The notes under the pieces were generated by a model. The model ran no database searches and was not told the DNA's origin. It was given only the letters and a program-made list of their open reading frames with translations. Of a DNA stretch of 32,000 nt, positions 525 through 24,023 are shown piece by piece; position 1 is the stretch's first letter, and each line of letters starts with the position of its first letter. Both the position numbers and the translations under genes were made by a program. The DNA is from Candidatus Methylomirabilis oxygeniifera (lineage in GTDB: Bacteria > Methylomirabilota > Methylomirabilia > Methylomirabilales > Methylomirabilaceae): assembly GCA_000091165.1 (NCBI GenBank), contig FP565575.1:930001-962000 (forward strand), given 5' to 3'.

Positions 525-546
525 ATGCCACTCCTCTTTGTTATGG

Positions 547-786: not shown

Positions 787-840
787 ATCCTAACCGTGGC
801 TTGTTACAACCATATGAAGGATCGATGACACGGAAGTAAA
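787..840 (-). promoter_or_regulatory. Phased direct-repeat promoter (Pho-box-like) of the 72-aa/STAS operon
   Basis: Read on the minus strand: TTTAC (840-836), GTCAT (829-825), TTCAT (818-814), GTAAC (807-803), exactly 11 bp apart. A 10-bp gap is followed by TAGGAT (792-787). Confidence 0.5.
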
Positions 841-1007
841 TTCGAGACCTCGGAGTAGCGATCTCAGTGAGAGCGGGAAGAGAAATAGTGTGAGAGCGGA
901 GCACACCGGGGCAAACCGCAGTATCAGGGGCAGCTATCCCGTGGTGCGGTCCGTTCCGGCTTCCACCGTCCTATACGATTTGCGGAAGAGTCTTAAATAG
1001 AAGAAAT

Positions 1008-1063
1008 GTTACACCACTGCAACATCGCAGTAATCCGGGTGTAATTGTGGCCTGTTTTACTTA
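1008..1063 (+). promoter_or_regulatory. Phased direct-repeat promoter (Pho-box-like) of the zinc-ribbon/HMA-like operon
   Basis: GTTAC 1008, GCAAC 1019, GTAAT 1030, GTAAT 1041 (11-bp phase). The -10-like hexamer is TTTACT/TACTTA at 1056-1063. Confidence 0.45.
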
Positions 1064-1067
1064 GGCC

Positions 1068-1364
1068 ATGAGAATCGCTTGTCCGGAAGAGGGGAGAGTA
1101 GAAACACGGGGCGGTGAAGTGATGTGCCCGTCATGCGGTTCAGAAGCCGTCAACAGGTACGGACGGGCATGGACCCAAAAGCAGCGGTTTCGATGCCTGA
1201 TATGCGGAAGACAGTTCACGCTTGGCAATCGAAACACCACACCTGCCAAGAGACCTTACTGCGGTAAGTGCGGTCGACCAATGCATATCTATAAACGGGA
1301 AGCGAATATTATCAGATTCAGGTGTTCCGGGTATCCGGACTGTCGGGGCTTTCACAAACAGTGA
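1068..1364 (+). CDS. Dual zinc-ribbon protein (IS1/IS1595-transposase-like CxxC..CxxC ribbon plus topoisomerase-type C4 ribbon)
   Basis: CPSCGSEAVNRYGRAWTQKQRFRCLICGRQF followed by CGKCGRPMHIYKREANIIRFRCSGYPDC. The real start may be the ATG at 1122 (MCPSCG), because the predicted -10 sits only about 5 nt before 1068. Confidence 0.6.
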   Translation: MRIACPEEGRVETRGGEVMCPSCGSEAVNRYGRAWTQKQRFRCLICGRQFTLGNRNTTPAKRPYCGKCGRPMHIYKREANIIRFRCSGYPDCRGFHKQ

Positions 1365-1379
1365 GCGAGGAGGTGTGAC

Positions 1380-1751
1380 GTGAGTCACTATATCCACGAT
1401 ATACCGGGAAGGCTCAGGGTGAGGACGCCCGTGATCCAGCGCAATCCCCATCTTGCCCAGGAAGTCTACGGGCTGTTGGCGGTGCTTCGCGGAATAGAGA
1501 GCGTGACAGTCAAGGTCGTGACCGGGAGTATCGTGATTCACTATGACCACAAGGTGATCCGGTCGCGAGAGATTATTGCCGCCCTCACCCACGCCGGTTA
1601 TTTTGATCCGAAGAAGGCGATCACCCACGATGACTACCTGCATGACGCATGCGTCAAGACCGGCAAGATCGTGTGGAAGGCCTTCTTTGGGGCTTTTGTA
1701 GATACGGCACTTGAAGGGTCCGCGCTGTCGTTCATCGCAATTCTGATATAG
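1380..1751 (+). CDS. CxxC-less HMA-like domain protein with hydrophobic C-terminus, 123 aa
   Basis: GTG start 6 nt after GAGGAGG (1367-1373). It shares H-x-GRLRVR ... TGSIVIHY with two other proteins in this window and has no metal-binding CxxC. The C-terminus WKAFFGAFVDTALEGSALSFIAILI is hydrophobic. Confidence 0.65.
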   Translation: MSHYIHDIPGRLRVRTPVIQRNPHLAQEVYGLLAVLRGIESVTVKVVTGSIVIHYDHKVIRSREIIAALTHAGYFDPKKAITHDDYLHDACVKTGKIVWKAFFGAFVDTALEGSALSFIAILI

Positions 1752-1800
1752 CAATTCCCCACATTGCCTTCTCCCGTTGCATCGCGCAGCGGTATTCCTA

Positions 1801-3000
1801 TCAGCCTTGCAGGGCACTGACCTTATCGGTGACCTCCCATGGAAGTCCGATGTCCATCCGTCCCACATGTCCATATGCAGCCAACTTCCTGTAAAACCCA
1901 CCTTTGATCAGGGATGGCAGATAGCGCAGGTTGAACTGCCTCATGATCCCAACGATCCGAAAATCGACATGGTTCTCAAGGAGCTGGGCGATCCGGGCGT
2001 CCGGCAGCTTGCCTGTGCCGAATGTCTCCACCTGCACGCTGACGGGTCGTGACAGGCCGATAGAGTAGCTTAACTGGACCTCACATTCCCGTGCTAGCCC
2101 GGCGGCAACCACGTTCTTGGCCGCATAGCGGGCGATGTACGCGCCGATACGGTCGATCCGCATGGGATCCTTCCCGCTCAGCGCCGCACCACTGTGTCGT
2201 GAATACTCCCCATAGGTGTCGATGGCATTCTTTCTGCCGGTCAGTCCGGAATGGATGGACGGTCCGCCGACGACAAACGGACCGTCCGGATTGACGAAGA
2301 TCCTGGTCTTGTCGTCCGGCTTGATCTCCGCTTCCTGTAGGATCGGGTGGATGACCATCTCTTTAAGATCCTGTTCCAGTCTTTTTAGATCGGGACCGCC
2401 GGCTGTCGAGGGTCTGCCCTGACTGGCAATCAGCGTGATGCTGTGTATCCTGTACGGCCTACGATCTCTGTACTCAACGCCGACCTGCGTCTTGCCGTCC
2501 GGAGCGAGATAGGGTAGGAGCTTTTGGAGCCTCACGGAGGTCAGCCGCCGGGCCAGCCGATGGGCCAGCCAGATGGGAAGCGGCATGAGGGCAGAGGTCT
2601 GATCGCATGCATAGCCGAAGACGGTCACCTGATTTCTTACCGGAATCCGCTCGATCTCTTCGTCTGACAGATACCGTTCGTCGAACGAGTCGGACTCCTC
2701 AGTGGGTAACTCCTTCAGACTGGTCAGAATGCTGCAGGTCTTGGCATTGAAGGAGTGGTCCGCGTACCCGACCTGGTTGATCACCTGTCTGGCGATGTTG
2801 GCGAAGTCGATAGAGACATTGGTAGAAAACCTGGCTGCAATAAATACAATGGCGGTTGAAACCGCGCATTCAGCGATCACCCGTGAACAGGGATCCCGTT
2901 GAAGGATATGATCCACGATGGCATCACTGATCTGATCGCACAGTTTATCGGGGTGTCCCTCTGTCACCGATTCGGAGGTAAACATAAAGTCAGCCTTCAT
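1801..3000 (-). CDS. metK: S-adenosylmethionine synthetase family protein, divergent paralog
   Basis: SESVTEGHPDKLCDQISDAIVD, PDGKTQV, GLTGRK..DTYG, SGKDP..DR..AY.ARY.AKN.VAAGLA. Trimmed to the ATG at 3000 (GAGGTG 6 nt upstream). Several invariant MAT motifs are altered (see findings). Confidence 0.85.
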   Translation of the reverse strand: MKADFMFTSESVTEGHPDKLCDQISDAIVDHILQRDPCSRVIAECAVSTAIVFIAARFSTNVSIDFANIARQVINQVGYADHSFNAKTCSILTSLKELPTEESDSFDERYLSDEEIERIPVRNQVTVFGYACDQTSALMPLPIWLAHRLARRLTSVRLQKLLPYLAPDGKTQVGVEYRDRRPYRIHSITLIASQGRPSTAGGPDLKRLEQDLKEMVIHPILQEAEIKPDDKTRIFVNPDGPFVVGGPSIHSGLTGRKNAIDTYGEYSRHSGAALSGKDPMRIDRIGAYIARYAAKNVVAAGLARECEVQLSYSIGLSRPVSVQVETFGTGKLPDARIAQLLENHVDFRIVGIMRQFNLRYLPSLIKGGFYRKLAAYGHVGRMDIGLPWEVTDKVSALQG

Positions 3001-3054
3001 GTGCGTCACCTCGTATGGCGAATGTACCGTCCCAAAAGTCTCTTTGCTTTGATT

Positions 3055-3119
3055 GTCATTCCGAGCTTGACCCGGAATCCAGGCCTTCTACTCTGGATTC
3101 CCGCTTTCGCGGGAATGAC
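3055..3119. repeat. Compound palindromic REP-like element (the 'IPAFAGMT / FPRKRES' type)
   Basis: Outer inverted repeat GTCATTCC (3055-3062) / GGAATGAC (3112-3119). Inner hairpin ATTCCCGC-TTTC-GCGGGAAT (3097-3116) and ATTCCG..CGGAAT (about 3058-3078). It yields the spurious peptide WIPAFAGMT in ORF 2899..3228. Confidence 0.6.
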
Positions 3120-6100
3120 GACCCCGGAAATGAATGTACAGAAGCATCGGATACACACACTATTGCCGGACCCGTTGTGGTGTGGTTGTTTGTCGTTGGG
3201 TGTATGCGAAGCTTGGTGGCCTCGTTGACCAGGAATGGGATCAGTGCGCCTCCTCCTACTACAAGCGCGTCTACCACCCCGAGAGGCGCAATACTCAGGA
3301 GACTGCGGAGTCCTGGAACTGTCAGTGTAGCGGCCTGAACGGCAAACGATCCGCCCAGTGCAAGCTGGAGGTATCGGTTGGGGGGGAGCGGAGTCCGGGC
3401 AGCCGGCGGATCATAGATCGTGTGTCTTTCTGAGCGGCAACTGAGGGCGTGCAGGAGCTGTCCCAGGACCAGGGTCACAAAGGCCATCGTGCCGGCCTGC
3501 GGCCCCATGCCGTATCTCAGGATACCATAGGTATAGGCCCCCATCGAACCCGCCGAGATCACGCCGGCCTCGTACGCGATCCTCTTCAGGTCGGCAGTGC
3601 TCAGGATCGGTTCGTGTGGATTTCGGGGTGGGCGACTCAACACATCAGGTTCGGGTGGCTCAAGGGCCAGCGCCAAGCCCGGGAAGATATCCGAGATCAG
3701 ATTGATCCACAAAAGCTGCATGGGGTTGAGCGGTTCACCCAGTCCCACCGTCATAGCGGCCGACATGACGAGCAGCTCGCTCGCGTTTGTGGCCAGGAGA
3801 AAATGGACCGCCTTTCTGATGTTGTTGTAGGTCGTCCTGCCATGGCTGATGGCCACGATCATCGTTTCAAGATCGTCGTTTTCCAGCACCACATCCGCCA
3901 CCTCCCTGGCGACATCCGTACCGGCGTGGCCCATCGCGATCCCGATATCTGCGGCCTTCAGAGCCGGTCCATCATTGATGCCGTCGCCGGTCATGGCCAC
4001 GACCCTGCCGGCTCGCTGAAGCGCCTGGACGATCTGCAGCTTATTGGCAGGGCTGACCCTCGAAAACACGTGGACCTTTTTTGAGAGCGCCTCCATGACC
4101 TGAGGATCCACGGTTGCCAAGTGGGTCGAGTCCAGGATTTCAAGCGACCCATTTCCGCCCAGATTCAACGACTTGCCGATGGCGTAGGCCGTAGGACTCT
4201 GATCTCCGGTGATCATGACGGTATCGATCCCAGCCTGGTGAAACCGGGGAATCAACTCCTTGACGCCGTTCCTGATCGGATCAGCCATGCCGACCAACCC
4301 GAGCCAGATCAATCCATGTCCGACATGACCCCCGTCCTCCGCATGATCCTGGTGGGCGTATGCGAGCCCCAGGACTCTAAGTGAATCACCGGCCATGCGT
4401 TCATTTTCGTTCTCAATCGTTGCGCGTATCTCCTCGGAGAGGGGAATCTGTTGACCGTCTTTCAGGTACCACTGACACATGTCCAGGACCTCTCGAGGAC
4501 TGCCCTTGACAGCCAACAGTCGTGACGGGGAATCCGACCGGTGCAGCGTCGTCATGTAGTTCCGATTTTCGGAGCGTTGGGTCATCTTGAGCAGCGGATA
4601 CCGCTCCCGGATTTTCAGGACATCGATCCCTGCGCTGACGGCCAGATGGACCAGGGCGTTCTCTGTGGGCGAGCCTGTCAGCACGCACTCCTCCCCGAGA
4701 TGACTCACGACGGTTTCGTTGCACAGCACCGAGGCATGAACCAATCTCAGGAGCTCGTCGCAGGTGAATGGGTTGATCGTGACCTCTCCTGAGACGAACC
4801 TCCCCTCTGTGATCGTGATAGTCTGCAGACTTGTGTGGATGGCCACCACCGACATCCGGTTCATGGTGATGGTTCCGGTCTTGTCCAGACAGATCGTCTG
4901 GACCGATCCGAGGGTCTCTACGGCATGAAGATATCGGATCAGGACATGATGTCGCCTCATGCTCCTGATTCCCAACGCCAGCGTCGTCGTGGCGACAGTG
5001 GACAGGCCTTCAGGGACGGCCGCCACTGCCAGTGAAATGGCGATCTTGAACATCCGGACAAAGCCGTATCCGCGGAGCAGGCCGATGACAAAGACCAGCA
5101 CGCAGGCCAAACCGCCAAGCCACACCGAGTGGTTGCCGATCTGTCTGAGCCGCCTTTCCATGGGGGTCTCGGGCGGTACCGCCTCGCCGGTCAGGATCTG
5201 AATCTGTCCCATCTCTGTCACGCCCCCGGTGGCGACCACCACAGCCAGCCCTTCGCCTCCCGTCACCAGGGTTCCCATATAGACCATGTTGATCCGATCG
5301 GCCAGCGGGACGGCGGCCGCAAGGATCGATTCCGCGGTCTTGAGCGCAGGCATATTCTCGCCGGTCAGCGCCGACTCATCCACATACAGATATCGGCTGT
5401 CCACGATCCTGGCATCCGCCGCAACGTAGCTTCCGGGTCTGAGTGCCAGGAGATCCCCAATGACGACCTCCTCTGCGCGAATGGTGAGGAGAGCGCCGTC
5501 CCGGATGACTGCCGCAGAAGGGGTCACCAGTTTCTTGAGGGAATGGAGCGTGTCCTCAGTTTGACTTTCGGTGACATACCCAATCGTGGCATTGATGCAT
5601 ACGACTCCAAGGATGACCAGCGCATCGGCAACCCCACCGGTCACAAACGAGAGCGCGGCGGCTGCCGCAAGGAGGGCGACAGGCAGCGAGGCAAACTGAT
5701 CGATCAGGATACCGAATCGTGATCGACGGAGCGCCTCAGGCAAGACATTCGGACCATATTGCGTGAGGCGTTCCCGCACTGATTCTTCAGATAGCCCTGA
5801 TCGTGTCGCACTCAGAATCGTAAGCGCCGAATCGATTTCGAGGGCGTGCCATGGGTGAACCGCCCGTCTTTCGACGGGAGACGTGGGAGAGGTGGCGGGT
5901 CTTGCCGTATGAGGGAGACGCTTACCGTTGAACGGCTGGTCGCTATACTCTGAAACGATACCCCTGATAAGGACGGTGACCGTCTTGGTGGTGTGGTCCG
6001 AATTGAAGACGATCAGGAGATTTCCGGTCAGGACGCTTGCCGAGGCATTCTTGATCCCCTTGACCTGATGGAGGCGGGACTCGAGGTATCCTTTGAGCAT

Positions 6101-6172
6101 CTGAGAGCGGTAGAGACCGCTGACTCGTAGCCTGATCCTCCCCTTCACCTGATTGTGTACGGCCTGAACCAC
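3056..6172 (-). CDS. P2-type (SERCA/PMCA-like) cation-transporting ATPase with N-terminal HMA-like domain, 1038 aa
   Basis: DKTGTIT (4865-4885), AVAAVPEGLSTVATTTLALG, MITGDQ, GDGINDGPALK, and a Cation_ATPase_N-like segment (WHALEIDSAL...GLSEESVRERLTQYGPN). N-terminal residues 1-75 carry GRIRLRV...LTGNLLIVF. GTG start 7 nt after GAGG. Confidence 0.9.
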   Translation of the reverse strand: MVQAVHNQVKGRIRLRVSGLYRSQMLKGYLESRLHQVKGIKNASASVLTGNLLIVFNSDHTTKTVTVLIRGIVSEYSDQPFNGKRLPHTARPATSPTSPVERRAVHPWHALEIDSALTILSATRSGLSEESVRERLTQYGPNVLPEALRRSRFGILIDQFASLPVALLAAAAALSFVTGGVADALVILGVVCINATIGYVTESQTEDTLHSLKKLVTPSAAVIRDGALLTIRAEEVVIGDLLALRPGSYVAADARIVDSRYLYVDESALTGENMPALKTAESILAAAVPLADRINMVYMGTLVTGGEGLAVVVATGGVTEMGQIQILTGEAVPPETPMERRLRQIGNHSVWLGGLACVLVFVIGLLRGYGFVRMFKIAISLAVAAVPEGLSTVATTTLALGIRSMRRHHVLIRYLHAVETLGSVQTICLDKTGTITMNRMSVVAIHTSLQTITITEGRFVSGEVTINPFTCDELLRLVHASVLCNETVVSHLGEECVLTGSPTENALVHLAVSAGIDVLKIRERYPLLKMTQRSENRNYMTTLHRSDSPSRLLAVKGSPREVLDMCQWYLKDGQQIPLSEEIRATIENENERMAGDSLRVLGLAYAHQDHAEDGGHVGHGLIWLGLVGMADPIRNGVKELIPRFHQAGIDTVMITGDQSPTAYAIGKSLNLGGNGSLEILDSTHLATVDPQVMEALSKKVHVFSRVSPANKLQIVQALQRAGRVVAMTGDGINDGPALKAADIGIAMGHAGTDVAREVADVVLENDDLETMIVAISHGRTTYNNIRKAVHFLLATNASELLVMSAAMTVGLGEPLNPMQLLWINLISDIFPGLALALEPPEPDVLSRPPRNPHEPILSTADLKRIAYEAGVISAGSMGAYTYGILRYGMGPQAGTMAFVTLVLGQLLHALSCRSERHTIYDPPAARTPLPPNRYLQLALGGSFAVQAATLTVPGLRSLLSIAPLGVVDALVVGGGALIPFLVNEATKLRIHPTTNNHTTTGPAIVCVSDASVHSFPGSSFPRKRESRVEGLDSGSSSE

Positions 6173-6189
6173 AAGGAGACCTCTAAAAG

Positions 6190-6236
6190 AAGCCGTCCTG
6201 ATCGAAGGCAGGGGCAGGTGTCAATCAGGACGGCTT
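6190..6236 (-). terminator. Intra-operon stem-loop (13-bp perfect stem) followed by CUUUU: attenuator or partial terminator
   Basis: AAGCCGTCCTGAT (6190-6202) pairs with ATCAGGACGGCTT (6224-6236), with a 21-nt loop. On the minus strand the stem is followed by CTTTTAGAGG, which also contains the ATPase SD. Confidence 0.45.
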
Positions 6237-6251
6237 TTGGTGGCGTGAGTA

Positions 6252-6953
6252 TTACTTGCTTCGTATGCGACCCTTGGGGACGGTCGATGATTCCAGAGGC
6301 TCGGCAGGTGCCGGTGACTTGGCTGGTGATGGTGGGGTCGGCACGCTCGCGCCGGATCTCGGGAGCGCTGCGCTTGCGACCTCCTTGACGCCCTCGACAA
6401 CGCCCAGCAGGATATCTTTCACAGTCCTGACGGCAGTCTGCCCGATGCTGCCCGCTGCCTCGATGGCTCCGGTTACGGCTACTCCGGCAGCCTTCTCCAC
6501 GTTGCCGCCTGTCTCTTTGACCGCATCAACCACGCCGTCTACAGCGCTTCTGGCCACGAGGCCGATGTCGGCCCCGATCTCGGCGGCGCCGGACACGGCG
6601 GCCTTTACGGTCTGACCGGCAACGCTCATCGCATCGCCTCCTACATCACCAACCCCCATGATGACCCCTTTGGCGACACTTCTGGTGCTCATGACCAGAC
6701 CTGTACCGACCTCCTCTGTGGCCTGGATCGCACCCTTGACGACATCACGTGTAAGGCCGATAGCCTCACCGGCCACTCCCCCCGTCGCCCTGAGGGTCTG
6801 AGAAACAGTATTTCGCACTAGACTGACGATTTCGGCTTCGATCTCATTAATCCCCTTCAGACTCGAGACGATCCCGTCCTTCACTGTTGTACCGGCTTTC
6901 CCGATCGGTTCAGATATACCTGATCCACCCTTTTCACCCTCTTCGATAACCAT
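6252..6953 (-). CDS. Gly/Ala/Val-rich protein built from 7-8 tandem ~22-residue repeats with a Pro-rich basic tail, 233 aa
   Basis: SD GAAGGAG upstream of the ATG at 6953. Repeats include LTRDVVKGAIQATEEVGTGLV, MSTRSVAKGVIMGVGDVGGDAM, SVAGQTVKAAVSGAAEIGADIG, LVARSAVDGVVDAVKETGGNVE and KAAGVAVTGAIEAAGSIGQTAV. Confidence 0.7.
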   Translation of the reverse strand: MVIEEGEKGGSGISEPIGKAGTTVKDGIVSSLKGINEIEAEIVSLVRNTVSQTLRATGGVAGEAIGLTRDVVKGAIQATEEVGTGLVMSTRSVAKGVIMGVGDVGGDAMSVAGQTVKAAVSGAAEIGADIGLVARSAVDGVVDAVKETGGNVEKAAGVAVTGAIEAAGSIGQTAVRTVKDILLGVVEGVKEVASAALPRSGASVPTPPSPAKSPAPAEPLESSTVPKGRIRSK

Positions 6954-6974
6954 CGCTAATCTCCTTCACGGTTG

Positions 6975-7481
6975 TTATTCGCCACCGGCCGCTGTGTCAC
7001 GTTGCCGTTCCTTCATGAGGCTGTGGGCATACCACAGCGCCGTTATGGCAGGCATCATGATATGGCCCCTCGTCAGTTGAATAATCGCGACGCCAACGAA
7101 TCCCAGTATGGCAAGCATCCTGAAATCGATGTCGCTACTCGCGCGGCCACCGACCTCTCCATTGACTTCTCGCGGGGATTGCTTGCGAATCACGGACGCA
7201 GACGTCTGGTTAGGAGGGGATACCTTCAGGCGAAACAGGTTATTGAATTCGCTGTACTGCGCAACCATCTCAAGGTCTGTAGCTTGCAGGTCCAAGGTAT
7301 GAAGGACAAGTATGCTCCCTGTCATGGGATTCGCCTCGATCCTCTGAATCCCTGGTAGTTCAGATAACCCCGCCAGCTTTTCCTTTAACGAAGCAAAATA
7401 GGTCGAATCGCCCTTCCTGTCAGGGATCTTGATCCTGACCCTTCCTTGAGTCGCATGAGTAATGTAGGCATCCGGAAGCAT
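6975..7481 (-). CDS. CxxC-less HMA-like domain protein with C-terminal TM segment, 168 aa
   Basis: ORF 6975..7631 trimmed to the ATG at 7481 (MLPDAYITHATQGRVRIKIP...), because the longer form overlaps the upstream gene out of frame. Motifs: GRVRIK ... MTGSILVLHT. TM-like FRMLAILGFVGVAIIQL. Confidence 0.7.
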   Translation of the reverse strand: MLPDAYITHATQGRVRIKIPDRKGDSTYFASLKEKLAGLSELPGIQRIEANPMTGSILVLHTLDLQATDLEMVAQYSEFNNLFRLKVSPPNQTSASVIRKQSPREVNGEVGGRASSDIDFRMLAILGFVGVAIIQLTRGHIMMPAITALWYAHSLMKERQRDTAAGGE

Positions 7482-7494
7482 CACGCCCCTACCT

Positions 7495-7785
7495 TTACGC
7501 TTCAGGTCGAGCGGGATCTGATACCACAGACCCGGTTTCTGTTGGAGCTTGAGCCAATTCCGCCTTCGCCTCCGCCGCCAGGTCCTCGATGACCTCTCCT
7601 GCCTCAGCAACCGCCTCCTGACCCTTTTCATAGAGCAAGATGCCGCCTTTAATTGTGGCCTTCAGCAGGGGCTTGACGATGGCCGCAGCCAGCGGGATCA
7701 CGACAGGGGCCAAAATAGACGCGCCGATACCAATGGCCAACCCTGTCACCACGTTTCCCTTCAGCCCATTATCTAACAATCCCAT
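7495..7785 (-). CDS. Small membrane protein, DUF5132-like, 96 aa
   Basis: SD AAAAGGAGGATCGTC then ATG at 7785. A hydrophobic hairpin (GLAIGIGASILAPVVIPLAAAIV) is followed by KGGILLYEKGQEAVAEAGEVIEDLAAEAKAEL. The DUF5132 assignment is from memory. Confidence 0.65.
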   Translation of the reverse strand: MGLLDNGLKGNVVTGLAIGIGASILAPVVIPLAAAIVKPLLKATIKGGILLYEKGQEAVAEAGEVIEDLAAEAKAELAQAPTETGSVVSDPARPEA

Positions 7786-7830
7786 GACGATCCTCCTTTT
7801 CCATGTGTTCGGCCATACAATCGTTAGATA

Positions 7831-7860
7831 ATGATAGGCTTCCAGGGGTGGCTATGTAAA
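7831..7860 (-). promoter_or_regulatory. Candidate sigma70-type promoter of the DUF5132-like/ATPase operon
   Basis: Minus strand: TTTACA (7860-7855), 18 nt, TATCAT (7836-7831), about 45 nt upstream of the ATG at 7785. It has no phased repeat array. Confidence 0.3.
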
Positions 7861-7880
7861 CATGCTCGTTCATTACTTAC

Positions 7881-9419
7881 CTATTCCTCGTCCTCGTCTT
7901 CGTCCTCATCGTCCGGAGAACCGATGCTCGGGTCCACGTACATGGCGAGCAACTGTCCGCCCTGTACCAGCGCCGGATCGGAGTGAGCGAAATGGGCCTG
8001 GGCATCGAGCAGAAACCATCCATTCCCGAGGATCTGGTGTGCATCGATGATCCCGGAGGATTCTTCATCGGTCGTGAGGGCGGGCGGGGCCGGCGGCGCA
8101 AAGAAGGCAGGGTCGTGTGCCGCGACCTCGATCAGTTGGCCACTGTTGGTGCTATACAACCAGATCTTTCCGAGCGGATCCTGCCTGCCGATATCCTCTT
8201 GCATCAGAAGGCGGCCGCGCCGGTCCATGGTGATATTATCGAGCATCTTGTGACCCTCGCTGCCGCTCAACAGAATCTCGATGGTTCCGCCGTGTTCCGG
8301 GTGTTCGATATCATTGAAGCGCAGTCTCCACAGTCGGCTGTTTGTCGAGAAGCTCGCAGTCGTCACAAAGTAGAAATCGTTCTCGTGGCCTGGTCGGGGG
8401 TCCCACACCCCGTCCTCGAGCCGCTGCATCCGGAAGACGTCGGCGGCGATAGCGGCGTCCTGAAGCTGTGTCTCGGTCAACCCGGAAACATCTCCGAAGC
8501 TGTGGAGGCTGAAGGTGCCTGACCCGACATAGTTGCCTCCGCTCCCGAGTCCGTCGGTGTTGCTTTCCTCGGTGACTGTGGTCCCGTTGACCGCCACCTT
8601 CATGCCGAACAGGCCGCCGTTCGTGAGCCCCGCGCGTTCCACAGGAGTACCGTGATTCGTCTTCATGCCGATATAGACATACAGCTCGCTTGGAACATTG
8701 GGCGGAATCGGGCTTGTGCTGGCATCGGCATCGTCCAGCCCGATGACGACGGTCTTTGACTGCCGATGCGGACTGGCGACCACGTTTTCGAACGCCATGC
8801 GTCCGAGACGCGGCAACTGCCAGGACTGACCCTTATGGGGCCCGGTGGCGATATGAGCCCACGCCGTTCCGTTGTTCGTCTCCTCGCCGTTGAGATAGAG
8901 GCGATCCCGTGTACCCTTCCCTCGGGCGAAGAACGCCTTCTGAGGCGCTAAGTCCGCCGAGCAGAAGCGATTCCAGGCGACCGTCCCTTGCGCGTATCGG
9001 CTGCTCACCGGATCCCAGGAGTAGACGTCGCTTGATGACGGTGTTTGATCCTCGCCCTTCAAGACCTCTAGTGTTTTCCGCTTGATCTCCCAGCGGGATA
9101 CGAACGCGCCCGGCGACCCATGGGCACGGACGACGCCCGCTGTTGCGCCCAGTTCGTGGTTCACCAATAGCGTGAATGTCCGGTGACCGCTCTTGAAGGC
9201 ACCCAGTCCATCCGGGATGCCTACCAGGGAATACCCGCCAATGGTGTCGCCGACGGTCAGCACCGAGATCGTCTCGACCCCAGGCATTGAGGGAAGGACA
9301 TACGGGGCTGTGGTTGTGCTCGGTCCGATGCTTTGCGCTGAAGCGACGCAGGCAGTCGTTGCCACGCATCCGAGAACCAACGCGGCTCGAGCAAGCTCTT
9401 TTCCAACCCTGTTCGACAT
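7881..9419 (-). CDS. Secreted PhoX-like (DUF839 beta-propeller) phosphatase, 512 aa
   Basis: Trimmed to the ATG at 9419 (AGGAGG upstream). Signal peptide MSNRVGKELARAALVLGCVATTACVASAQS. GIPDGLGAF, LLVNHEL, FCSA, NGEE and LPRLGRMAFEN resemble the PhoX/DUF839 family. The C-terminal tail is acidic (DDEDEDEDEE). Confidence 0.6.
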   Translation of the reverse strand: MSNRVGKELARAALVLGCVATTACVASAQSIGPSTTTAPYVLPSMPGVETISVLTVGDTIGGYSLVGIPDGLGAFKSGHRTFTLLVNHELGATAGVVRAHGSPGAFVSRWEIKRKTLEVLKGEDQTPSSSDVYSWDPVSSRYAQGTVAWNRFCSADLAPQKAFFARGKGTRDRLYLNGEETNNGTAWAHIATGPHKGQSWQLPRLGRMAFENVVASPHRQSKTVVIGLDDADASTSPIPPNVPSELYVYIGMKTNHGTPVERAGLTNGGLFGMKVAVNGTTVTEESNTDGLGSGGNYVGSGTFSLHSFGDVSGLTETQLQDAAIAADVFRMQRLEDGVWDPRPGHENDFYFVTTASFSTNSRLWRLRFNDIEHPEHGGTIEILLSGSEGHKMLDNITMDRRGRLLMQEDIGRQDPLGKIWLYSTNSGQLIEVAAHDPAFFAPPAPPALTTDEESSGIIDAHQILGNGWFLLDAQAHFAHSDPALVQGGQLLAMYVDPSIGSPDDEDEDEDEE

Positions 9420-9498
9420 GTGATCATACCTCCTATTGAGAAGTTGATGTCCACACCCCGATGACAACATGTAACACACATGCTGCGGAGTATGGCGT

Positions 9499-9541
9499 AT
9501 CCTAACCCCCCCTTATGTCCGTGTGATGACATGGGAGTAAA
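9499..9541 (-). promoter_or_regulatory. Phased direct-repeat promoter (Pho-box-like) of the PhoX-like gene
   Basis: Minus strand: TTTAC (9541-9537), GTCAT (9530-9526), GACAT (9519-9515), a 10-bp gap, then TAGGAT (9504-9499). Confidence 0.55.
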
Positions 9542-9586
9542 AAGCGTGTTACAAGTTCCAGCCCGACAGACGTGTGTCGGTAGGAA

Positions 9587-9640
9587 TTTACACCGGAGAA
9601 ACCCGGTCGTAACAGACGCGTCACAACAACACCCTACTGT
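9587..9640 (+). promoter_or_regulatory. Phased direct-repeat promoter (Pho-box-like) of the GAF hybrid kinase gene
   Basis: TTTAC 9587, GAAAC 9598, GTAAC 9609, GTCAC 9620, a 10-bp gap, then TACTGT (9635-9640). Confidence 0.5.
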
Positions 9641-9693
9641 TTGAGCAAAGAAGGTATCTGCAGACCGTTATTCAACCGAACCGAGGTGTCACG

Positions 9694-11526
9694 ATGAAAC
9701 ACGTTCAGTCTCTCGAACTACTTCATGCAAGCCTCCATATACGCGAACCCCTGGAGCTTCGTGAACGTCTGGATCGGATCATGCGGACCGCGCGGGATAT
9801 TTTAGGGCTACGACGCCTGACCCTGTTCCTCGCCGATCCTGAAGGGTTGTGTCTGCGTACAGTAGCCAGTACGGCCTTGAGCCCGGGATCACGGCCGATT
9901 CCGCTGACCGACTCGGAGAATCCCGTCGTACGGGCCTATAGTGCTCATGCGCCGGTGTTCTGGAATCCACAGATGCCGACTACCCGGGCGATTCGACTGC
10001 AGCCGCCTTATGATCACCCTGTCGGGCTACCCTCCGACGGGTTCCTCAACCTCCCACTCATTGTGCAGGGACGAGTGATCGGCGTTCTGGGTGTTGAGCA
10101 TCCGGAGGGGGGCTGGATCCTGGACCGTGAGACGATCCAACTGATGGAGTTGTTTGCCGCTCAGGCGGCGACGGCTATCGAACACGCCCGTCTCTATGAG
10201 GAGGCAAGACGGATAGCAGCAGAACTGCAACAAAAGGTCGAAGCCCTTGCGCAGGCCGACGCAGCGCTCGTGGAGTCGGTACGGCTCCGCGCCATGGGCC
10301 AGATGGCCTCCGGCGTGGCGCATGATTTTAATAATATTCTGAACTCGATCCTGGGGCAGGTGCAGCTCCTGCAGACGCGTTTCGCGCAGGGATCTGTCCA
10401 TGCGGCAACAATCAAGGAGACGCTGCGGCTGCTGGAAGCGGCGGCCCTCGATGGGGCTGAGATTGTCCGCAAACTCCGTGAATTCACACGACCTGCTGAG
10501 GAGGAGGCGTTTGTGCCGATGGCCCTCGATAAGGTGATCGAGCAAGTGCTGGACACGACCAGGCCTCGTTGGAAGGACCAGGCTGAGGCCAGCGGTCGTC
10601 GCTTTCGGATTGTGACTGAGTGTGCATCTGTTCCCCCTATTCTCGGAAATGCCTCGGAACTCCGGGCGGTCGTCACCAACCTGTTGTTCAATGCCTTGGA
10701 TGCGATGCCGCAGGGGGGAACTGTAACCATTACGCTACGACATGTTCAGAGGGGTGGGGAGACCGCTCAACGAGCGGAAGGATTGATCGTGAATGGCGAG
10801 TGGGGTGAGAAGAGACGTCGATCTGAACGTGGAGGAGTCGTCCTGTTTACGATGACGGATACTGGAGTGGGAATTCCTGACAGTGTCAAAGCGCGTATCT
10901 TTGACCCATTCTTTACGACGAAGGGTACACGGGGGACCGGACTTGGTCTCAGCATGGTTCACGGAATCGTTCGCCGCCACCGTGGTGAGATTCTGGTAGC
11001 CAGCGAGGAGAGGCGTGGCACAACTATCACGATCTCCCTGCCGATTGCTGTAGACATTCCAACGGTTGTCATGTCCGAGGCGACTGCGCTGCCGAGCGTA
11101 CCATACTGCGCACGGATTTTAGTCATCGATGATGATCCGCTTGGTGTGGACGTCCTGATGGCTTTCTTGCAGACGCTTGGCCATGAGGCCGTAGTGGCGA
11201 CGGGAGGACCGGAGGGTCTTCGACTGTTGGAGACGAACAAGTTCGATCTACTTCTGACCGATCTGGGTATGCCGGAGATGTCGGGGTGGGATGTGGCCCA
11301 GGCGGCCAAGACCCGTCTCCCCAGCCTCCCCGTTGTCCTCGTCACCGGATGGGGGGATCATATCGATCCGTCGAGACTCGCGGGGACCGGAGTTGACGTG
11401 GTGCTGACCAAGCCGTACACGCTCTCGGACCTTGGTACCGGATTGAGCAAGGCCTGGGGCGCGTCCACAGTAGAGCCGAGACGGGGTTACAACGTAGCGA
11501 GATGTAACGAAACGTGTGAGGTGTGA
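9694..11526 (+). CDS. GAF-domain hybrid sensor histidine kinase with C-terminal receiver, 610 aa
   Basis: H-box GVAHDFNNILNSILG. The HATPase_c N/G boxes are present (NLLFNALDAM, DTGVGI, GTGLGLSMV). Receiver: ILVIDDD...LLLTDLGMPEMSG...TKP. Confidence 0.9.
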   Translation: MKHVQSLELLHASLHIREPLELRERLDRIMRTARDILGLRRLTLFLADPEGLCLRTVASTALSPGSRPIPLTDSENPVVRAYSAHAPVFWNPQMPTTRAIRLQPPYDHPVGLPSDGFLNLPLIVQGRVIGVLGVEHPEGGWILDRETIQLMELFAAQAATAIEHARLYEEARRIAAELQQKVEALAQADAALVESVRLRAMGQMASGVAHDFNNILNSILGQVQLLQTRFAQGSVHAATIKETLRLLEAAALDGAEIVRKLREFTRPAEEEAFVPMALDKVIEQVLDTTRPRWKDQAEASGRRFRIVTECASVPPILGNASELRAVVTNLLFNALDAMPQGGTVTITLRHVQRGGETAQRAEGLIVNGEWGEKRRRSERGGVVLFTMTDTGVGIPDSVKARIFDPFFTTKGTRGTGLGLSMVHGIVRRHRGEILVASEERRGTTITISLPIAVDIPTVVMSEATALPSVPYCARILVIDDDPLGVDVLMAFLQTLGHEAVVATGGPEGLRLLETNKFDLLLTDLGMPEMSGWDVAQAAKTRLPSLPVVLVTGWGDHIDPSRLAGTGVDVVLTKPYTLSDLGTGLSKAWGASTVEPRRGYNVARCNETCEV

Positions 11527-11578
11527 CACCGTAGAGCGGAAAACAGCGCGCCCTTGGACCGTCATACTGGAGGCGCGC

Positions 11579-11617
11579 CCCTTGTGCCCAGTACAAACGG
11601 GTTGCAAGGGTATTTTG
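11579..11617 (+). terminator. Probable rho-independent terminator of the kinase gene
   Basis: CCCTTG (11579-11584) pairs with CAAGGG (11605-11610), plus inner GCCC/GGGT pairing. TATTTTGTG follows. Confidence 0.45.
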
Positions 11618-11642
11618 TGAGACATCACACGAGCAGCCCCCT

Positions 11643-12599
11643 CTAGGCGATTTGCGCTGCCAATCCGACCTCCAGCCCGTTTCCCGATGTCGGCCGGAAG
11701 TCAGGGCGGGTAAGATCCATCTCGACCTGCGCGGGATTGCCCCAATCGCTCCAGTAGACGTCTTTTACCCGTTTTACCGCGAGGCGAGGAGGATGCTGAG
11801 CCAAAATCGCTCGCGAGAAATCCACCGGCGGCAGCTTGGCGTAGACGCTTTCGACGGCCTCAGCTTCTCTCGGAGACCCGATGAGGGGCTCTAAGCCATC
11901 AAAGAGATTGAAGAGTCCCGGCGTCAGCGTCTTGAAAAGGCTGATCAACCACCAGGCTCGTCCGATTGCAACCATCGTGTTCCACAAGCAATCGTATCGG
12001 CGGTAGAGGATCTGGGCCGTGCGGCGGTCGGGCTTCTCCCAAAATCGTCGTACGTGATGGACCTCCGCATGGTCATGGTATCCGGAAATACCATCTGTCT
12101 CAATCCAGCCATACTCGGGTTCCGGTCGCTTCGGTTCGACCCCTAAGAGGACGAGACAACCGGGGGCTGTAGCGACAAAGGCGGCAACCTCCTCGACATG
12201 CGACATGAACCGCTCCTCCTCAGCGATGAAGTGGTCGGCCGGCAGTAAGACCACGACAGCCTTCGGATCTTGCCGGTAGACATGCAACAGCGGCAGCAGG
12301 ATGCCCGGCCCCGTCTCCCGGTTGCTAGGCTGGACGATAACGGCGCCCGGAGGGCGGTCATGGAGCTCTTCGCGAGCATAATCAAGGTGCGGGCGGGTCA
12401 CGACGGTCAGGAGACGCTCAGGCGGGATGAGCCGCTCGGCACGATACAGCGTGTGCCGGAGCATTGAACGGCTGCCGAAAAGTGTACAGTACTGCTTTGG
12501 CCGATCAGAACCGAAACGCGACCGGATGAAGGGCCGAAGCCTCTTGCCCTCGCCGCCTGCCAGGATAATGCCCCAAAGATGATCGGTTATTCCAGACAT
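11643..12599 (-). CDS. Sugar-phosphate nucleotidyltransferase, mannose-1-phosphate guanylyltransferase-like, 318 aa
   Basis: ILAGGEGKRLRPF...RPKQY, PEPEYGWIE, FWEKPD, LWNTM and SDWGNP match the ManC/NTP_transferase pattern. An SD-like AGGAGGAGAGG precedes the ATG at 12599. Confidence 0.8.
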   Translation of the reverse strand: MSGITDHLWGIILAGGEGKRLRPFIRSRFGSDRPKQYCTLFGSRSMLRHTLYRAERLIPPERLLTVVTRPHLDYAREELHDRPPGAVIVQPSNRETGPGILLPLLHVYRQDPKAVVVLLPADHFIAEEERFMSHVEEVAAFVATAPGCLVLLGVEPKRPEPEYGWIETDGISGYHDHAEVHHVRRFWEKPDRRTAQILYRRYDCLWNTMVAIGRAWWLISLFKTLTPGLFNLFDGLEPLIGSPREAEAVESVYAKLPPVDFSRAILAQHPPRLAVKRVKDVYWSDWGNPAQVEMDLTRPDFRPTSGNGLEVGLAAQIA

Positions 12600-12694
12600 A
12601 TCCTCTCCTCCTTTTCTCCATGCGAGTATTCAAGAGTCAGTGTGAGTTCAAGGATCGGTGATGTGTGCCGAACGTCTCTCTCATGACTATGAGG

Positions 12695-12748
12695 AAGATA
12701 ACCGGGGAATGTTGCCGTGAAATGAAGGGGTGATGACGAAGGGGTAAA
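12695..12748 (-). promoter_or_regulatory. Phased direct-repeat promoter (Pho-box-like) of the nucleotidyltransferase gene
   Basis: Minus strand: TTTAC (12748-12744), GTCAT (12737-12733), TTCAT (12726-12722), GCAAC (12715-12711), a 10-bp gap, then TATCTT (12700-12695). Confidence 0.5.
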
Positions 12749-12774
12749 TTCTGTCGGGTGGATCAGACCAACAC

Positions 12775-14364
12775 TTACGAGCGGACAACGGCCTCTCGCG
12801 GCCAGTCCCGCTTCTCGGGTAGTGTGACAAACAGCGAGACCATGGTCCGCACGCCGATCGAGCGGATCAGGTTTACCATCAGGGCGAGGTAGCCGACCAA
12901 CAGAACCGCGCCGAAGCAGGCCGCCAGATACATCTCGCTGAGGTAGGAGGCATCACCAATGTACAGGGTCCGGCGCAACATCCCGTCGAGTCCGGCAAAC
13001 CCCATCGCCACCGACATGCCGATCCCCCCGAGCATCTGGCACCAGAAATGAATGTTGGACAGGACCATGCTCTTGATTTCGCGCTTGGTCACCAGCGGGA
13101 AGATCATATAGAGCGCGGCGAACAGGGTGCAGGAGAGCCCGACCAGGATTTGCATGTGGGCATGGGCGCCGATCACCCACTGGGTGTTGTGCAGGACGCG
13201 GTTCATCCCCAGGTCGGCCTGCAGGATGCCGGCCGGCACTCCAAGGCCGAATCCGACGATCCCGCCCAACAGGAACTTGAGCGGCATCGTCATCGTGAGG
13301 GGGCGCGCCTGCCAGAGCGTGGCCAGAGTGCAGAAGACGGCGATCCCGGAGGTCACCAGCTCGAAGGCGGTGATCAGCTCACCCGAGAGGAGTTTCATCC
13401 ACCCGGGCTGCGTCTGGTCTGAGAGCAGATGGTGGCTCCAGACGAACCAGGAGACCACCAGCTCCACGAAGAGGGCGGCGCGGGCGATGTGCTGCATGTA
13501 GAGCGGTCGACCCGTCAGCAGCATGGCCAGCAGGTACCAGGACCCCGCCACGTAGATCAGCACCAGCCCGTCGGCGATCAGGTCCAGCCCCCACCAGTAG
13601 ACATTCTTGTACAGTAGGGCGTCGAACCAGGTCGTGGGCAGCGCGACCCCGTTCAATCCGTACACGGCGTAGACCACGAAGATCAGGCAGATCCCTCCCA
13701 GCACGACGGCATCCAGGACCGTGTCGATCGTACCGCGAAAGATTGCGACAATCGGCAGGGGAACGTCGGGATGCTTGGTCTTCTGGCGGCCCCTGGCGAC
13801 GTGATAGAGGTTGACCCACCCATCGAGGCCGAGGCTGGAGACCAGCAAGGCGGAGACGGGCTTATGTTCCGGTTTTCGGTGGAACACCGTGGCGAAGAGG
13901 TTGAAGCAGAAGAGCAGGATCGCGACCATGATGGTCAACATGCCGACAGCGTACACCAGGAGGCTCACCGGCTTGGAGGCCGTCACCGGCAGCGGCCAGT
14001 AGTTGGTGTAGAGCGCCGAATGCAAGAAGAGGGCGCTGCTCACCCAGACGCTGAGCACCCCGGCAGCCATGAGCCGCCAGGTCCACTCAGCCGCCCGGAC
14101 GCTGTAGAGGTCCTTCTTAAGCAGCGTCGGGACCAGGAAGGAGAAGGCGCCCATGACGAGCATGAAGCTGTAGCCGAAAATCCCCACGATGGGGTGGGCG
14201 TTCAGTACGGCGTAAAAGTGCTCGGGCTCGAGCAGCGGCATGTTGGCCAGCGCGGTCCGCATCATCATCCCCTCCAGCGTGGCGAGTCCGTAGAAGAGCA
14301 GGGCGATGACGGCGAACCGCAGGGTCACGTGCTGCAGCGGCGTGAGATCGCGAAGCGACACCAT
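12775..14364 (-). CDS. Heme-copper oxidase superfamily subunit I with non-canonical active-site ligand set (NOR-like), 529 aa
   Basis: Trimmed to the ATG at 14364 (AGGAGG 6 nt upstream). About 12 or more TM helices. H57 (NAHPIVGIFG), H311-H312 (WSHHLL) and H401/H403 (GAHAHM) are present, but helix VI reads WWGLDLIADG instead of W.GHP/GHN. Confidence 0.85.
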   Translation of the reverse strand: MVSLRDLTPLQHVTLRFAVIALLFYGLATLEGMMMRTALANMPLLEPEHFYAVLNAHPIVGIFGYSFMLVMGAFSFLVPTLLKKDLYSVRAAEWTWRLMAAGVLSVWVSSALFLHSALYTNYWPLPVTASKPVSLLVYAVGMLTIMVAILLFCFNLFATVFHRKPEHKPVSALLVSSLGLDGWVNLYHVARGRQKTKHPDVPLPIVAIFRGTIDTVLDAVVLGGICLIFVVYAVYGLNGVALPTTWFDALLYKNVYWWGLDLIADGLVLIYVAGSWYLLAMLLTGRPLYMQHIARAALFVELVVSWFVWSHHLLSDQTQPGWMKLLSGELITAFELVTSGIAVFCTLATLWQARPLTMTMPLKFLLGGIVGFGLGVPAGILQADLGMNRVLHNTQWVIGAHAHMQILVGLSCTLFAALYMIFPLVTKREIKSMVLSNIHFWCQMLGGIGMSVAMGFAGLDGMLRRTLYIGDASYLSEMYLAACFGAVLLVGYLALMVNLIRSIGVRTMVSLFVTLPEKRDWPREAVVRS

Positions 14365-14374
14365 GATCGACCTC

Positions 14375-14932
14375 CTATCTCTGAGCGACCATCTGAGCTG
14401 ATGCGACCTCGATCGTGTGCCTGGCGTGCATCTGCCAAGTGTGGGGTCCGGCGTACTCCGTGGAGCGGATCGAGTACCGGCCGGGTTCGGAGAAGACCCA
14501 GACGAGGTCATTGTCATGACCCGGGACGACCTGCATCTGAAACTCCATCCGCCCGTTCTCGCGGAAGACGCCGAAGCCGTAGGTCAGGTCTTCGGACCGG
14601 ACCCGGAAGCGCACGAGTTCCCCCTGTGTGATCCTGATGCCTTCGTCGGGGAGGTGAAACTGATGGTCTTGGACGGTGACGGCGATGTCCCGGTCTGGAG
14701 TCAGACGGGCACGCTGCAATTCCCACCGGACCCACGGGACCTGCCAGGCGGTCAGCAGGTGGAAGGCGATCGACACGCTCACCAGGCAGCCGATCCACCC
14801 ATAGAACGGCATCTTCGCCATCCACGACGACTGTCGCCCAGACGTCAATCCGCGTACATAGCCCCACATCATCGAGAGCACGGTCATCACCATGACCGAG
14901 TAAAAGCCTTTCACGAGCAGTGCGAGCGGCAT
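14375..14932 (-). CDS. HCO subunit II-like cupredoxin protein lacking CuA ligands, 185 aa
   Basis: Trimmed to the ATG at 14932 (AAGGAGGTG upstream). Two N-terminal TM helices. SEDLTYGF replaces DVIHSF, and RSTEYAGPHTWQM replaces C.E.CG..H..M. There is no CxxCH. Confidence 0.7.
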   Translation of the reverse strand: MPLALLVKGFYSVMVMTVLSMMWGYVRGLTSGRQSSWMAKMPFYGWIGCLVSVSIAFHLLTAWQVPWVRWELQRARLTPDRDIAVTVQDHQFHLPDEGIRITQGELVRFRVRSEDLTYGFGVFRENGRMEFQMQVVPGHDNDLVWVFSEPGRYSIRSTEYAGPHTWQMHARHTIEVASAQMVAQR

Positions 14933-15011
14933 TGGCACACCTCCTTTCCCTTCATTTCCGGTGCACACCCTGGTAGCGTCAAGCCCCAAAGTCTCTCTTA
15001 TGACTAATGGA

Positions 15012-15065
15012 AGCATAGTCGGGGAATGTTGCCGTCAAATGAAGGAGTCGTGACGAAGAGGTAAA
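15012..15065 (-). promoter_or_regulatory. Phased direct-repeat promoter (Pho-box-like) of the HCO operon
   Basis: Minus strand: TTTAC (15065-15061), GTCAC (15054-15050), TTCAT (15043-15039), GCAAC (15032-15028), a 10-bp gap, then TATGCT (15017-15012). Confidence 0.5.
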
Positions 15066-18146: not shown

Positions 18147-18165
18147 AGTATCTTCCCACTATCCG

Positions 18166-24006: not shown

Positions 24007-24023
24007 CCTTACTGTTCCGCCGA

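Follow-up and report, generated by a model that had tools for sequence, protein, structure and literature searches.

The PhoP boxes of Bacillus subtilis are TT(A/T/C)ACA repeats, at least four of which are present per promoter, and PhoR of this organism is of the TM-PAS-TM-HAMP-PAS type (TM, transmembrane segment). The effector domains of PhoB have been described to bind their repeats in tandem and head-to-tail, and PhoB contacts sigma-70 (PMC4415409). In Streptomyces, the PhoP sites consist of a variable number of 11-nt direct-repeat units (DRu) with a GTTCACC core (PMC2275107). Here we analyzed a stretch of 32,000 nucleotides from Candidatus Methylomirabilis oxygeniifera (phylum NC10; contig FP565575.1, positions 930,001 to 962,000), referred to as the window throughout, in which six promoters carry one common array of phased repeats. 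With a probability of roughly 0.85 these six sites are Pho boxes, i.e. promoter arrays of a phosphate-starvation regulator; binding by this regulator and induction by phosphate limitation are what we infer from the sequence. The mechanism proposed is an ordinary one, that of the well-known Pho box. The arrays, with their boxes and -10-like hexamers given in the direction of the downstream gene, are as follows.

803..840, minus strand: S1, putative Pho-box array; TTTAC 840-836, GTCAT 829-825, TTCAT 818-814, GTAAC 807-803; -10 TAGGAT 792-787
1008..1061, plus strand: S2, putative Pho-box array; GTTAC 1008, GCAAC 1019, GTAAT 1030, GTAAT 1041; -10 TTTACT 1056-1061
9499..9552, minus strand: S3, putative Pho-box array; GTAAC 9552-9548, TTTAC 9541, GTCAT 9530, GACAT 9519; -10 TAGGAT 9504-9499
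9587..9640, plus strand: S4, putative Pho-box array; TTTAC, GAAAC, GTAAC, GTCAC; -10 TACTGT 9635-9640
12695..12748, minus strand: S5, putative Pho-box array; TTTAC, GTCAT, TTCAT, GCAAC; -10 TATCTT 12700-12695
15012..15065, minus strand: S6, putative Pho-box array; TTTAC, GTCAC, TTCAT, GCAAC; -10 TATGCT 15017-15012

An initial annotation of the window had listed six sites of this kind, and all of them were re-derived at the same coordinates. When both strands of the window were searched with the loose pattern (KNNAY-N6)x3-KNNAY, exactly six matches were obtained, at those places and nowhere else (box 1 starting at 840(-), 1008(+), 9552(-), 9587(+), 12748(-) and 15065(-)); all six are intergenic and each is oriented to the adjacent gene. 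Two entries of the annotation needed amendment. At S3 three boxes had been given, which is wrong, since a fourth box upstream, GTAAC at 9552-9548, provides the same layout as at the other sites. At S2 the four boxes stand and the missing -10 can be supplied by the candidate TTTACT, 6 nt before the ATG at 1068. The matches are rare: in 300 first-order Markov shuffles the loose pattern occurs 0.56 times per window on average (maximum 5), or about once per 114,000 positions, so that the earlier estimate of one chance hit per 65,000 positions was slightly conservative. Among the 24 boxes, A at position 4 and C or T at position 5 are invariant (24/24 each), as had been noticed before; position 1 is G or T in all of them (24/24) and position 2 is T in 19. 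Box 4 and the -10-like hexamer are separated by 10 bp in 6/6 sites, the hexamer being of the TAnnnT type in five of them and TTTACT at S2. A -35-like hexamer at a spacer of 16-18 bp was found in none of the six sites, the best match being 4/6 at one site. The S3 and S4 arrays stand back-to-back with 35 bp between them.

A 4x11-bp position matrix was then trained on the six window sites only. It scores these sites at 24-29.5 bits, while in shuffled windows the top score is 8.8 bits on average and 19.3 bits at most. With leave-one-out matrices, the omitted site in each case comes next after the training sites in a ranking of 63,914 positions; for S6 the result is weaker (rank 9) if its duplicate S5 is left out as well. 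As the annotation had already remarked, these last two sites are not independent: S5 and S6 belong to a duplicated cassette of about 80 bp, which runs from GAATTTAC into the first ~25 nt of the transcript. The window therefore contains five independent sites. The duplication spans 12680-12760 and 14997-15075, is retained in two other species (L012 and L025; L-numbers are our handles for loci) and covers, immediately behind the -10, a conserved part of the transcript, AGTCATRAGAGAGAC. An upstream flank, GTCTCGAATTTAC, is common to S1 and S6.

With sequence copying of this extent, the common layout could have arisen without common regulation, either through duplication or mobility of a promoter cassette or by chance. 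The S5/S6 duplication does reach into the transcribed region, and S1 and S6 do share their flank, but S2, S3, S4 and the pstS site described below have only the phased boxes in common, six sites are observed against the 0.56 expected, and unrelated DNA is devoid of matches. Moreover, the spacers drift while the boxes stay conserved. Between Methylomirabilis species, 4 of 120 box positions have changed compared with 34 of 158 positions in spacers and gaps (Fisher p = 5e-6). None of the four box changes breaks the KNNAY pattern, and the -10 hexamers have been preserved. Boxes and -10 of the S1 ortholog in L013 are retained next to changed spacers, at S2 in L017 nearly half of the spacer bases are replaced with all boxes retained, and S5 is conserved in L012, a species 84% identical, and in L025. 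We therefore disfavour an explanation by copying or chance as very improbable.

The flank beyond the window start was retrieved through the 72-aa protein of the S1 operon (locus L016; overlap with the window 10,765 nt, 0 mismatches), and this flank, which is part of the same contig, holds a pstS-pstC-pstA-pstB-phoU operon close to the window. In 10 kb outside the window the matrix finds one new site, which with 31.4 bits scores above every training site. It consists of five boxes, TTTAT/GTAAC/GTAAC/GTAAC/GTTAT, followed by 11 bp and TAGTCT, with 32 nt between its end and the pstS ATG. Occurrence of the motif upstream of pstSCAB, which the initial annotation had named as a check of its Pho-box-like reading, was thus observed. 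The PstC (756 aa) and PstA (539 aa) proteins encoded in this flank (L016 13412-17298) are much longer than their E. coli counterparts, and the predicted product of the phoU-type gene has 451 aa and combines PhoU and PhoU_div domains.

The same matrix was applied to Escherichia coli, for which the pstS promoter sequence was checked against 5,423 genomes before use. A 30-kb scan returned the experimentally defined Pho boxes of pstS as its best match (28.3 bits), in the correct register and 10 bp away from TATTTT. E. coli phoB and phoA each have a single Pho box, which ranks 2nd and 6th, respectively, among the two-box matches of the surrounding 30 kb. As a negative control we used the loci from a homolog search with the hybrid kinase encoded downstream of S4. 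This search returned a single close relative, the Methylomirabilis locus L025, and 79 further loci that hold paralogs; the 79 unrelated metagenomic loci (729 kb) yield no match of 20 bits or more, L025 four. The sites are non-random, they are conserved as boxes, and they are positioned as in the E. coli pstS promoter.

In other lineages, the matrix matches pstS promoters in L112, L113, L114 and L115 at 24.6-31.7 bits, and furthermore sequences upstream of psiE (L112), near phoH (L114) and upstream of a PF04185 phosphoesterase gene (L111); composition-matched shuffles of the other-lineage loci give at most about 0.4 matches per locus. The strongest array found anywhere, with 35.2 bits, lies between pstS and pstC in L114 (6397-6440), with a second strong array (23.6 bits) on the opposite strand at 6403. 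An exact scan for the four-box pattern in 185,579 genomes, one per species, returned Methylomirabilis and five Terriglobales genomes. In the latter (L007-L011, L014) the array precedes an operon of a metallophosphoesterase and a GT28/MGDG-synthase-like gene (MGDG, monogalactosyldiacylglycerol), with 10 bp to a TAGAAA-type -10 and a further 7-8 nt to the start codon; from this short distance a leaderless transcript is predicted. Judged from Pfam domains and gene order, the operon is of the plcP-agt lipid-remodelling type. Predicted Pho boxes have been reported for plcP gene clusters of phosphate-starvation lipid remodelling (PMC4796936).

Taken together, the arrays are head-to-tail repeats at 11 bp (four units at the six sites, five at pstS) with a core like that of defined Pho boxes, they occupy the place of the -35 element, and they are present at pstS and other phosphate-scavenging genes. 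The Pho-box-like reading of the initial annotation is thereby supported by the pstS site, the match to E. coli pstS and the pstS promoters of other lineages. The genes downstream of the six arrays are the following.

165..765, minus strand: 72-aa protein (547-765, ATG 765) and STAS protein (165-524), first genes of the S1 operon
1068-1364, plus strand: zinc-ribbon protein with InsA-type and Top1-type ribbons, downstream of S2
1380-1751, plus strand: CoBaHMA/HMA_2 protein of 123 aa, zinc-ribbon operon
7881-9419, minus strand: PhoX-like protein, probably secreted (ATG 9419)
7495-7785, minus strand: DUF5132 protein
6975-7484, minus strand: CoBaHMA-TM protein
6252-6953, minus strand: G/A/V-rich protein of 233 aa, no Pfam match
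3056-6172, minus strand: CoBaHMA-fused type-II P-type ATPase (Ca-type)
1801-3000, minus strand: MetK
9694..11526, plus strand: GAF-HisKA-HATPase-receiver hybrid kinase, downstream of S4 (ATG 9694)
11643..12599, minus strand: nucleotidyltransferase, like the N-terminal domain of mannose-1-phosphate guanylyltransferase, downstream of S5 (ATG 12599)
12775..14932, minus strand: gNOR-type heme-copper oxidoreductase (HCO), subunit II-like cupredoxin (14375-14932) and subunit I (12775-14364), operon downstream of S6

The S1 operon continues from the 72-aa and STAS genes to an OprO/P-type phosphate-selective porin gene just beyond the window start. Downstream of S3, a co-directional gene run spans 1801..9419 on the minus strand, from the PhoX-like gene to metK. 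Pfam PhoX matches the PhoX-like protein at 26.6 bits (cut-off 24), over residues 347-456 only and with no single stretch being significant; a Sec-type signal peptide is seen, and searches of NCBIfam and of the sequences in the PDB gave no match. Three CoBaHMA proteins are encoded in the window, including the fused ATPase, in addition to the DUF5132 protein; the Pfam family HMA_2 corresponds to the CoBaHMA domain. The predicted regulon comprises the 72-aa/STAS/OprP-like porin operon, pstSCAB-phoU, the PhoX-like protein together with the CoBaHMA/DUF5132/P-type ATPase/MetK cluster, the zinc-ribbon/CoBaHMA operon, the GAF hybrid kinase, the nucleotidyltransferase and the gNOR-type HCO. Its canonical members are the porin operon and pst-phoU. 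The window belongs to a phosphate island of Ca. Methylomirabilis. The GAF hybrid kinase is predicted to be a Pho-regulated second-tier sensor.

The product of the S6 operon had been described initially as a NOR-like oxidase, and this description can be refined. Subunit I carries WWGLDLIAD, in which an Asp replaces the active-site His of helix VI, and the HH and HxH motifs with the remaining active-site and heme-ligand His residues are kept. The sequence WWGLDLIADGLVLIY is invariant in the window HCO and 10 homologs from Nitrospirota, Nitrospinota, WOR-1, Persephonella and Sulfurimonas. In the 185-aa subunit II, which apparently lacks the CuA cysteines, STEYAGPHTWQMH is found, as read by eye, at the place of the CuA motif CxxxCxxxH, and the only match is a weak CzcE-like one. 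A search of PDB sequences with the HCO gave weak cbb3 matches only (E = 1.6e-5). The gNOR family is defined by an Asp in place of one active-site His, the other two active-site His and the heme-ligand His being retained, and Ca. M. oxyfera has been listed as having a gNOR (PMC11214002). By these sequence features the HCO belongs to the gNOR family. No array of the S6 type is present upstream of the 85%-identical HCO of L105, another NC10-like contig, or upstream of the WOR-1 and Nitrospinota gNOR homologs, which adjoin Rrf2/hemerythrin genes or sigma-54 activators. The gNOR Pho box is thus lineage-specific, and the duplicated promoter cassette at this operon suggests rewiring by promoter duplication.

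Furthermore, homologs of the CoBaHMA-fused P-type ATPase were placed in their genomic context in six further lineages and compared with the window. The gene order DUF5132, CoBaHMA-TM, a protein of ~225 aa, ATPase and MetK recurs in the seven lineages, which include NC10, Nitrospiria and Planctomycetota. The zinc-ribbon/CoBaHMA pair is located nearby in divergent orientation, its place being taken in L113 by a variant operon of a small gene and a CoBaHMA gene. The cluster (window 1068-9419; L110-L116) frequently also contains genes for DUF3562, an ArsA-like ATPase, GDT1 or CorA. Phosphate genes were found within 10 kb of the cluster in every lineage surveyed. In three lineages pstSCAB-phoU directly adjoins it, as is also the case in the window flank; the other neighbours are a PstS-like gene with psiE, a phosphoesterase gene with a PhoBR-like pair, and a PhoBR-like pair, in one lineage each. 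The zinc-ribbon operon has a Pho-box array in six of the seven lineages. In L110, L111 and L112 box 4 is followed by 10 bp, TTTAMT, 6 nt and the ATG, with a similar layout in L114 (TTATAA). Because the same order of box 4, -10, 6 nt and ATG is seen in four lineages, the zinc-ribbon transcript of S2 is probably leaderless and would start at 1068.

Directly upstream of DUF5132 no Pho box was found in other phyla, and a conserved 15-mer is present instead.

7869..7883, minus strand: conserved 15-mer TAGGTAAGTAATGAA, overlapping the stop codon of the PhoX-like gene, 96 nt before the DUF5132 ATG

The 13-nt core of the 15-mer TAGGYAAGTAATGAA is identical in 7/7 lineages from several phyla, the flanks not being conserved, and in each case a distance of 87-144 nt separates the element from the DUF5132 start codon downstream (window 7883-7869 on the minus strand; L110 1942, L111 7339, L112 2812, L113 8376, L114 8299, L115 8229). 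A stop codon occurs in each of its three frames, and in L112-L114 it is 16-22 bp away from box 1 of the divergent Pho array. No consensus RNA structure was obtained with RNAalifold for the leader containing the 15-mer. The 15-mer may serve the DUF5132-ATPase-MetK operon as an operator or as part of its promoter, and the zinc-ribbon protein is a candidate for its binder. A PhoB-induced zinc-ribbon protein binding to the 15-mer operator of the main operon would amount to a feed-forward cascade. We tentatively propose, at slightly worse than even odds, that the DUF5132/CoBaHMA-TM/G/A/V-rich/ATPase/MetK cluster and the zinc-ribbon/CoBaHMA pair form a phosphate-starvation module across several phyla, and that the gNOR has come under phosphate control via a copied Pho-box cassette. 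If this is true, the role of CoBaHMA/DUF5132 proteins would lie in the homeostasis of Ca and phosphate (as polyphosphate or mineral), whereas the sole process with which they have so far been associated is the biomineralisation of Ca-carbonate inside the cell.

A candidate for the regulator is encoded in the window as well.

22174..24707, minus strand: candidate cognate two-component system, with an OmpR/PhoB-family response regulator (24024-24707) and a TM-HAMP-PAS-HisKA-HATPase kinase (22174-24006)

Under phosphate limitation, the kinase would phosphorylate the response regulator, in analogy to E. coli PhoB and B. subtilis PhoP. Regulator dimers would then bind cooperatively to successive 11-bp units on one face of the helix, and the promoter-proximal protomer would recruit RNA polymerase via sigma region 4. 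The array of four head-to-tail 11-bp units with the core G/T-T-N-A-Y takes the place of the -35 element and ends 10 bp before a TAnnnT -10. Phosphate would be the signal.

The pair had been put down in the initial annotation as PhoB/PhoR. Its domains agree with this, the Pfam search confirming a receiver with OmpR-type winged-helix regulator and a PAS-HisKA-HATPase kinase. The same regulator protein occurs on contig WBTX01000007.1 of assembly GCA_009026205.1 and in run SRR023516. The regulator and E. coli PhoB share 43% identity, the recognition helix (RTVDVHxRRLR) and the wing (GYRF) being the same in both, and the kinase reaches the NCBIfam cut-off for the phosphate-sensing PnpS (405.4 bits, cut-off 400). 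The assignment does not extend to the curated PhoB and PhoR families: PhoB TIGR02154 is the best match of the regulator but its 252.6 bits remain below the cut-off of 296.2, and the kinase scores 298 bits with phoR_proteo (cut-off 334.2). The pair lies ~32 kb from pst-phoU on the same contig, and the nearest array, S6, is 9 kb away. No second OmpR-family pair is encoded in the window or up to 10 kb away from pst-phoU, and regulators 47-53% identical to the one of this pair, with the same recognition helix, adjoin the conserved CoBaHMA cluster in L110 and L111. We consider it somewhat likelier than an even chance that the pair at 22174-24707 provides the binding regulator.

True Pho boxes could also be bound by a PhoB encoded elsewhere in the genome, the product of 24024-24707 controlling something else. 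The pair is distant from the arrays and surrounded by unrelated genes (an APH-like kinase, Tex and the ModE locus), no array precedes it, and its regulator misses the PhoB equivalog cut-off. Set against this are the lack of any other OmpR-family regulator in the stretch just named, the relatives beside the CoBaHMA cluster and the PnpS score of the kinase, and a PhoB from elsewhere is in our view unlikely, although a serious competitor to the local pair.

Several observations weigh against the assignment of the arrays to a Pho regulator and of this regulator to the local pair. RTVDVHxRRLR and GYRF residues are common among OmpR-family paralogs, the closest solved relatives of the regulator are MtrA and RegX3, and the best curated match falls short of its cut-off, as stated above. 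No 2-, 3- or 4-box site above shuffle level was found upstream of the response regulator/kinase operon, so that its autoregulation was rejected, whereas E. coli phoBR is autoregulated. Several predicted members, such as the gNOR and the GAF kinase, are without a known link to phosphate, and the array is missing at the HCO of L105, the nearest other lineage. S1, S5 and S6 are alike beyond their boxes, and part of the similarity among these three is therefore due to common descent. Finally, the Pho-box assignment is a sequence-level one.

The likeness to Pho boxes might also exist at the family level only, the arrays being bound by another OmpR-family regulator with another signal such as envelope state, redox or nitric oxide (NO), metal or calcium. 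Several members of the family, e.g. WalR and OmpR, recognise direct repeats of GTNAY spaced at 10-11 bp, and the TGTWAH direct repeat bound by WalR-type regulators closely resembles the unit found here; the pair of the window compares best with WalK and stays below the PhoB cut-off. The gNOR, the hybrid kinase and the Ca-type ATPase would suit a control by NO or metal, and Rrf2 or sigma-54 activators are the neighbours of the gNOR homologs in WOR-1 and Nitrospinota. However, the highest-scoring site of window and flank sits on pstS, the matrix picks pstS in E. coli and in four lineages as well as psiE, phoH, phosphoesterase and plcP-like genes, and the S1 operon ends in a phosphate-selective porin. 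Control by such a different regulator is improbable on this evidence, and we retain the Pho-box reading for the six arrays.

Some further loci of the window deserve mention. The genes at 25.6-28.2 kb resemble pstS and oprP, and this reading could not be upheld. PBP_like_2 (25589-26467) was rejected as pstS and the porin (26598-28175) as oprP; the best NCBIfam match is TupA, and no array is present. These genes adjoin those for a ModE-like repressor, Mop and formylmethanofuran/formate dehydrogenase and form a tungstate/molybdate locus (ModE/Mop/TupA-like), the true OprP-like porin, pst and phoU being located beyond the window edge. The ModE-like gene (24898-25236) is followed by a Mop/TOBE gene and then by the genes for the TupA-like binding protein, the OprO/P-family porin and formylmethanofuran/formate dehydrogenase. 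Just upstream of it, at 24864-24887, lies an inverted repeat, CGATAT-N12-ATATCG, probably the ModE operator of this tungstate or molybdate locus. An operon of arsR, an ACR3-type (SBF) gene and an arsC of the low-molecular-weight phosphatase type (16486-18528) is situated inside the phosphate island and has no Pho-box array. Between the gNOR promoter and the ars genes, the gene for an MNT-type nucleotidyltransferase of 110 aa overlaps that for a HEPN protein (15326-16061), which is a typical toxin-antitoxin pair. An Rfam search of the window gave no match.

Overall, to judge by the searchable literature, neither a sequence-level definition of a Pho box nor a predicted Pho regulon had been available for the phylum NC10 before this work. 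Since the organism is not genetically manipulable, promoter-level predictions are among the few handles on the regulation of Methylomirabilis. Methylomirabilis is a nitrite-dependent methane oxidiser whose metabolism proceeds via NO, and phosphate limitation may induce a gNOR-type enzyme in it. As the matrix works in E. coli, Acidobacteriota, Planctomycetota and Nitrospirota, it should be usable for annotating the Pho regulons of uncultured lineages. The CoBaHMA/DUF5132/P-type ATPase/MetK cluster may join the phosphate response, which would give a condition for study to the field of calcyanin and intracellular amorphous calcium carbonate (iACC). The value of the analysis thus lies in a portable matrix, a first regulon prediction for NC10 and two unexpected members open to experiment, the gNOR and the CoBaHMA cluster.

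When compared with known systems, the cluster resembles the ccyA neighbourhood of iACC-forming cyanobacteria; ccyA encodes calcyanin and serves as a marker for the formation of Ca-carbonate inside cells. In Microcystis, ccyA is surrounded by genes for DUF5132, CoBaHMA-TM proteins and a Ca transporter, which are expressed together with it (bioRxiv 10.1101/2024.07.07.602159; PMC8890360). Counterparts in the window are the DUF5132 protein, the three CoBaHMA proteins and the Ca-type P-ATPase with its fused CoBaHMA domain. No calcyanin was detected in the window; the 233-aa G/A/V-rich protein has no Pfam match. In contrast to the ccyA neighbourhood, the transporter of the window is a P-type ATPase and not a CAX protein, and MetK and the zinc-ribbon protein belong to the cluster. 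A link between CoBaHMA and phosphate was not reported in the searchable literature.

The arrays themselves share with the E. coli pstS promoter the four head-to-tail units, the 11-bp phase, the missing -35 and the 10-bp gap to the -10, and the E. coli core GTCAT/TACAT/GTCAC fits G/T-N-N-A-Y. They differ from it in that the NC10 units favour GTAAC, TTTAC and TTCAT over CTGTCAT, the spacers are G+C-rich instead of A/T-rich, and -10 hexamers such as TAGGAT are further from TATAAT. In addition, the NC10 regulator operon is without a Pho box, and the NC10 kinase, unlike E. coli PhoR, has a periplasmic domain and a HAMP domain. With the PhoP system of B. subtilis, the arrays have half-sites of the TTTAC/TTAAC type at 11-bp phase in common, four per promoter, and the kinase its domain order. 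The closest NCBIfam matches of the kinase, PnpS and WalK, are Firmicutes-type relatives, the likeness to B. subtilis being one of domain order and profile scores, and the NC10 organism, in contrast to B. subtilis, is a diderm. The five-unit pstS site next to the four-unit sites of NC10 fits the variable-unit logic of Streptomyces PhoP, the core sequence being different. With the plcP-agt operons there is agreement in layout, the Terriglobales operon having the identical four-box pattern, the 10-bp gap and the -10.

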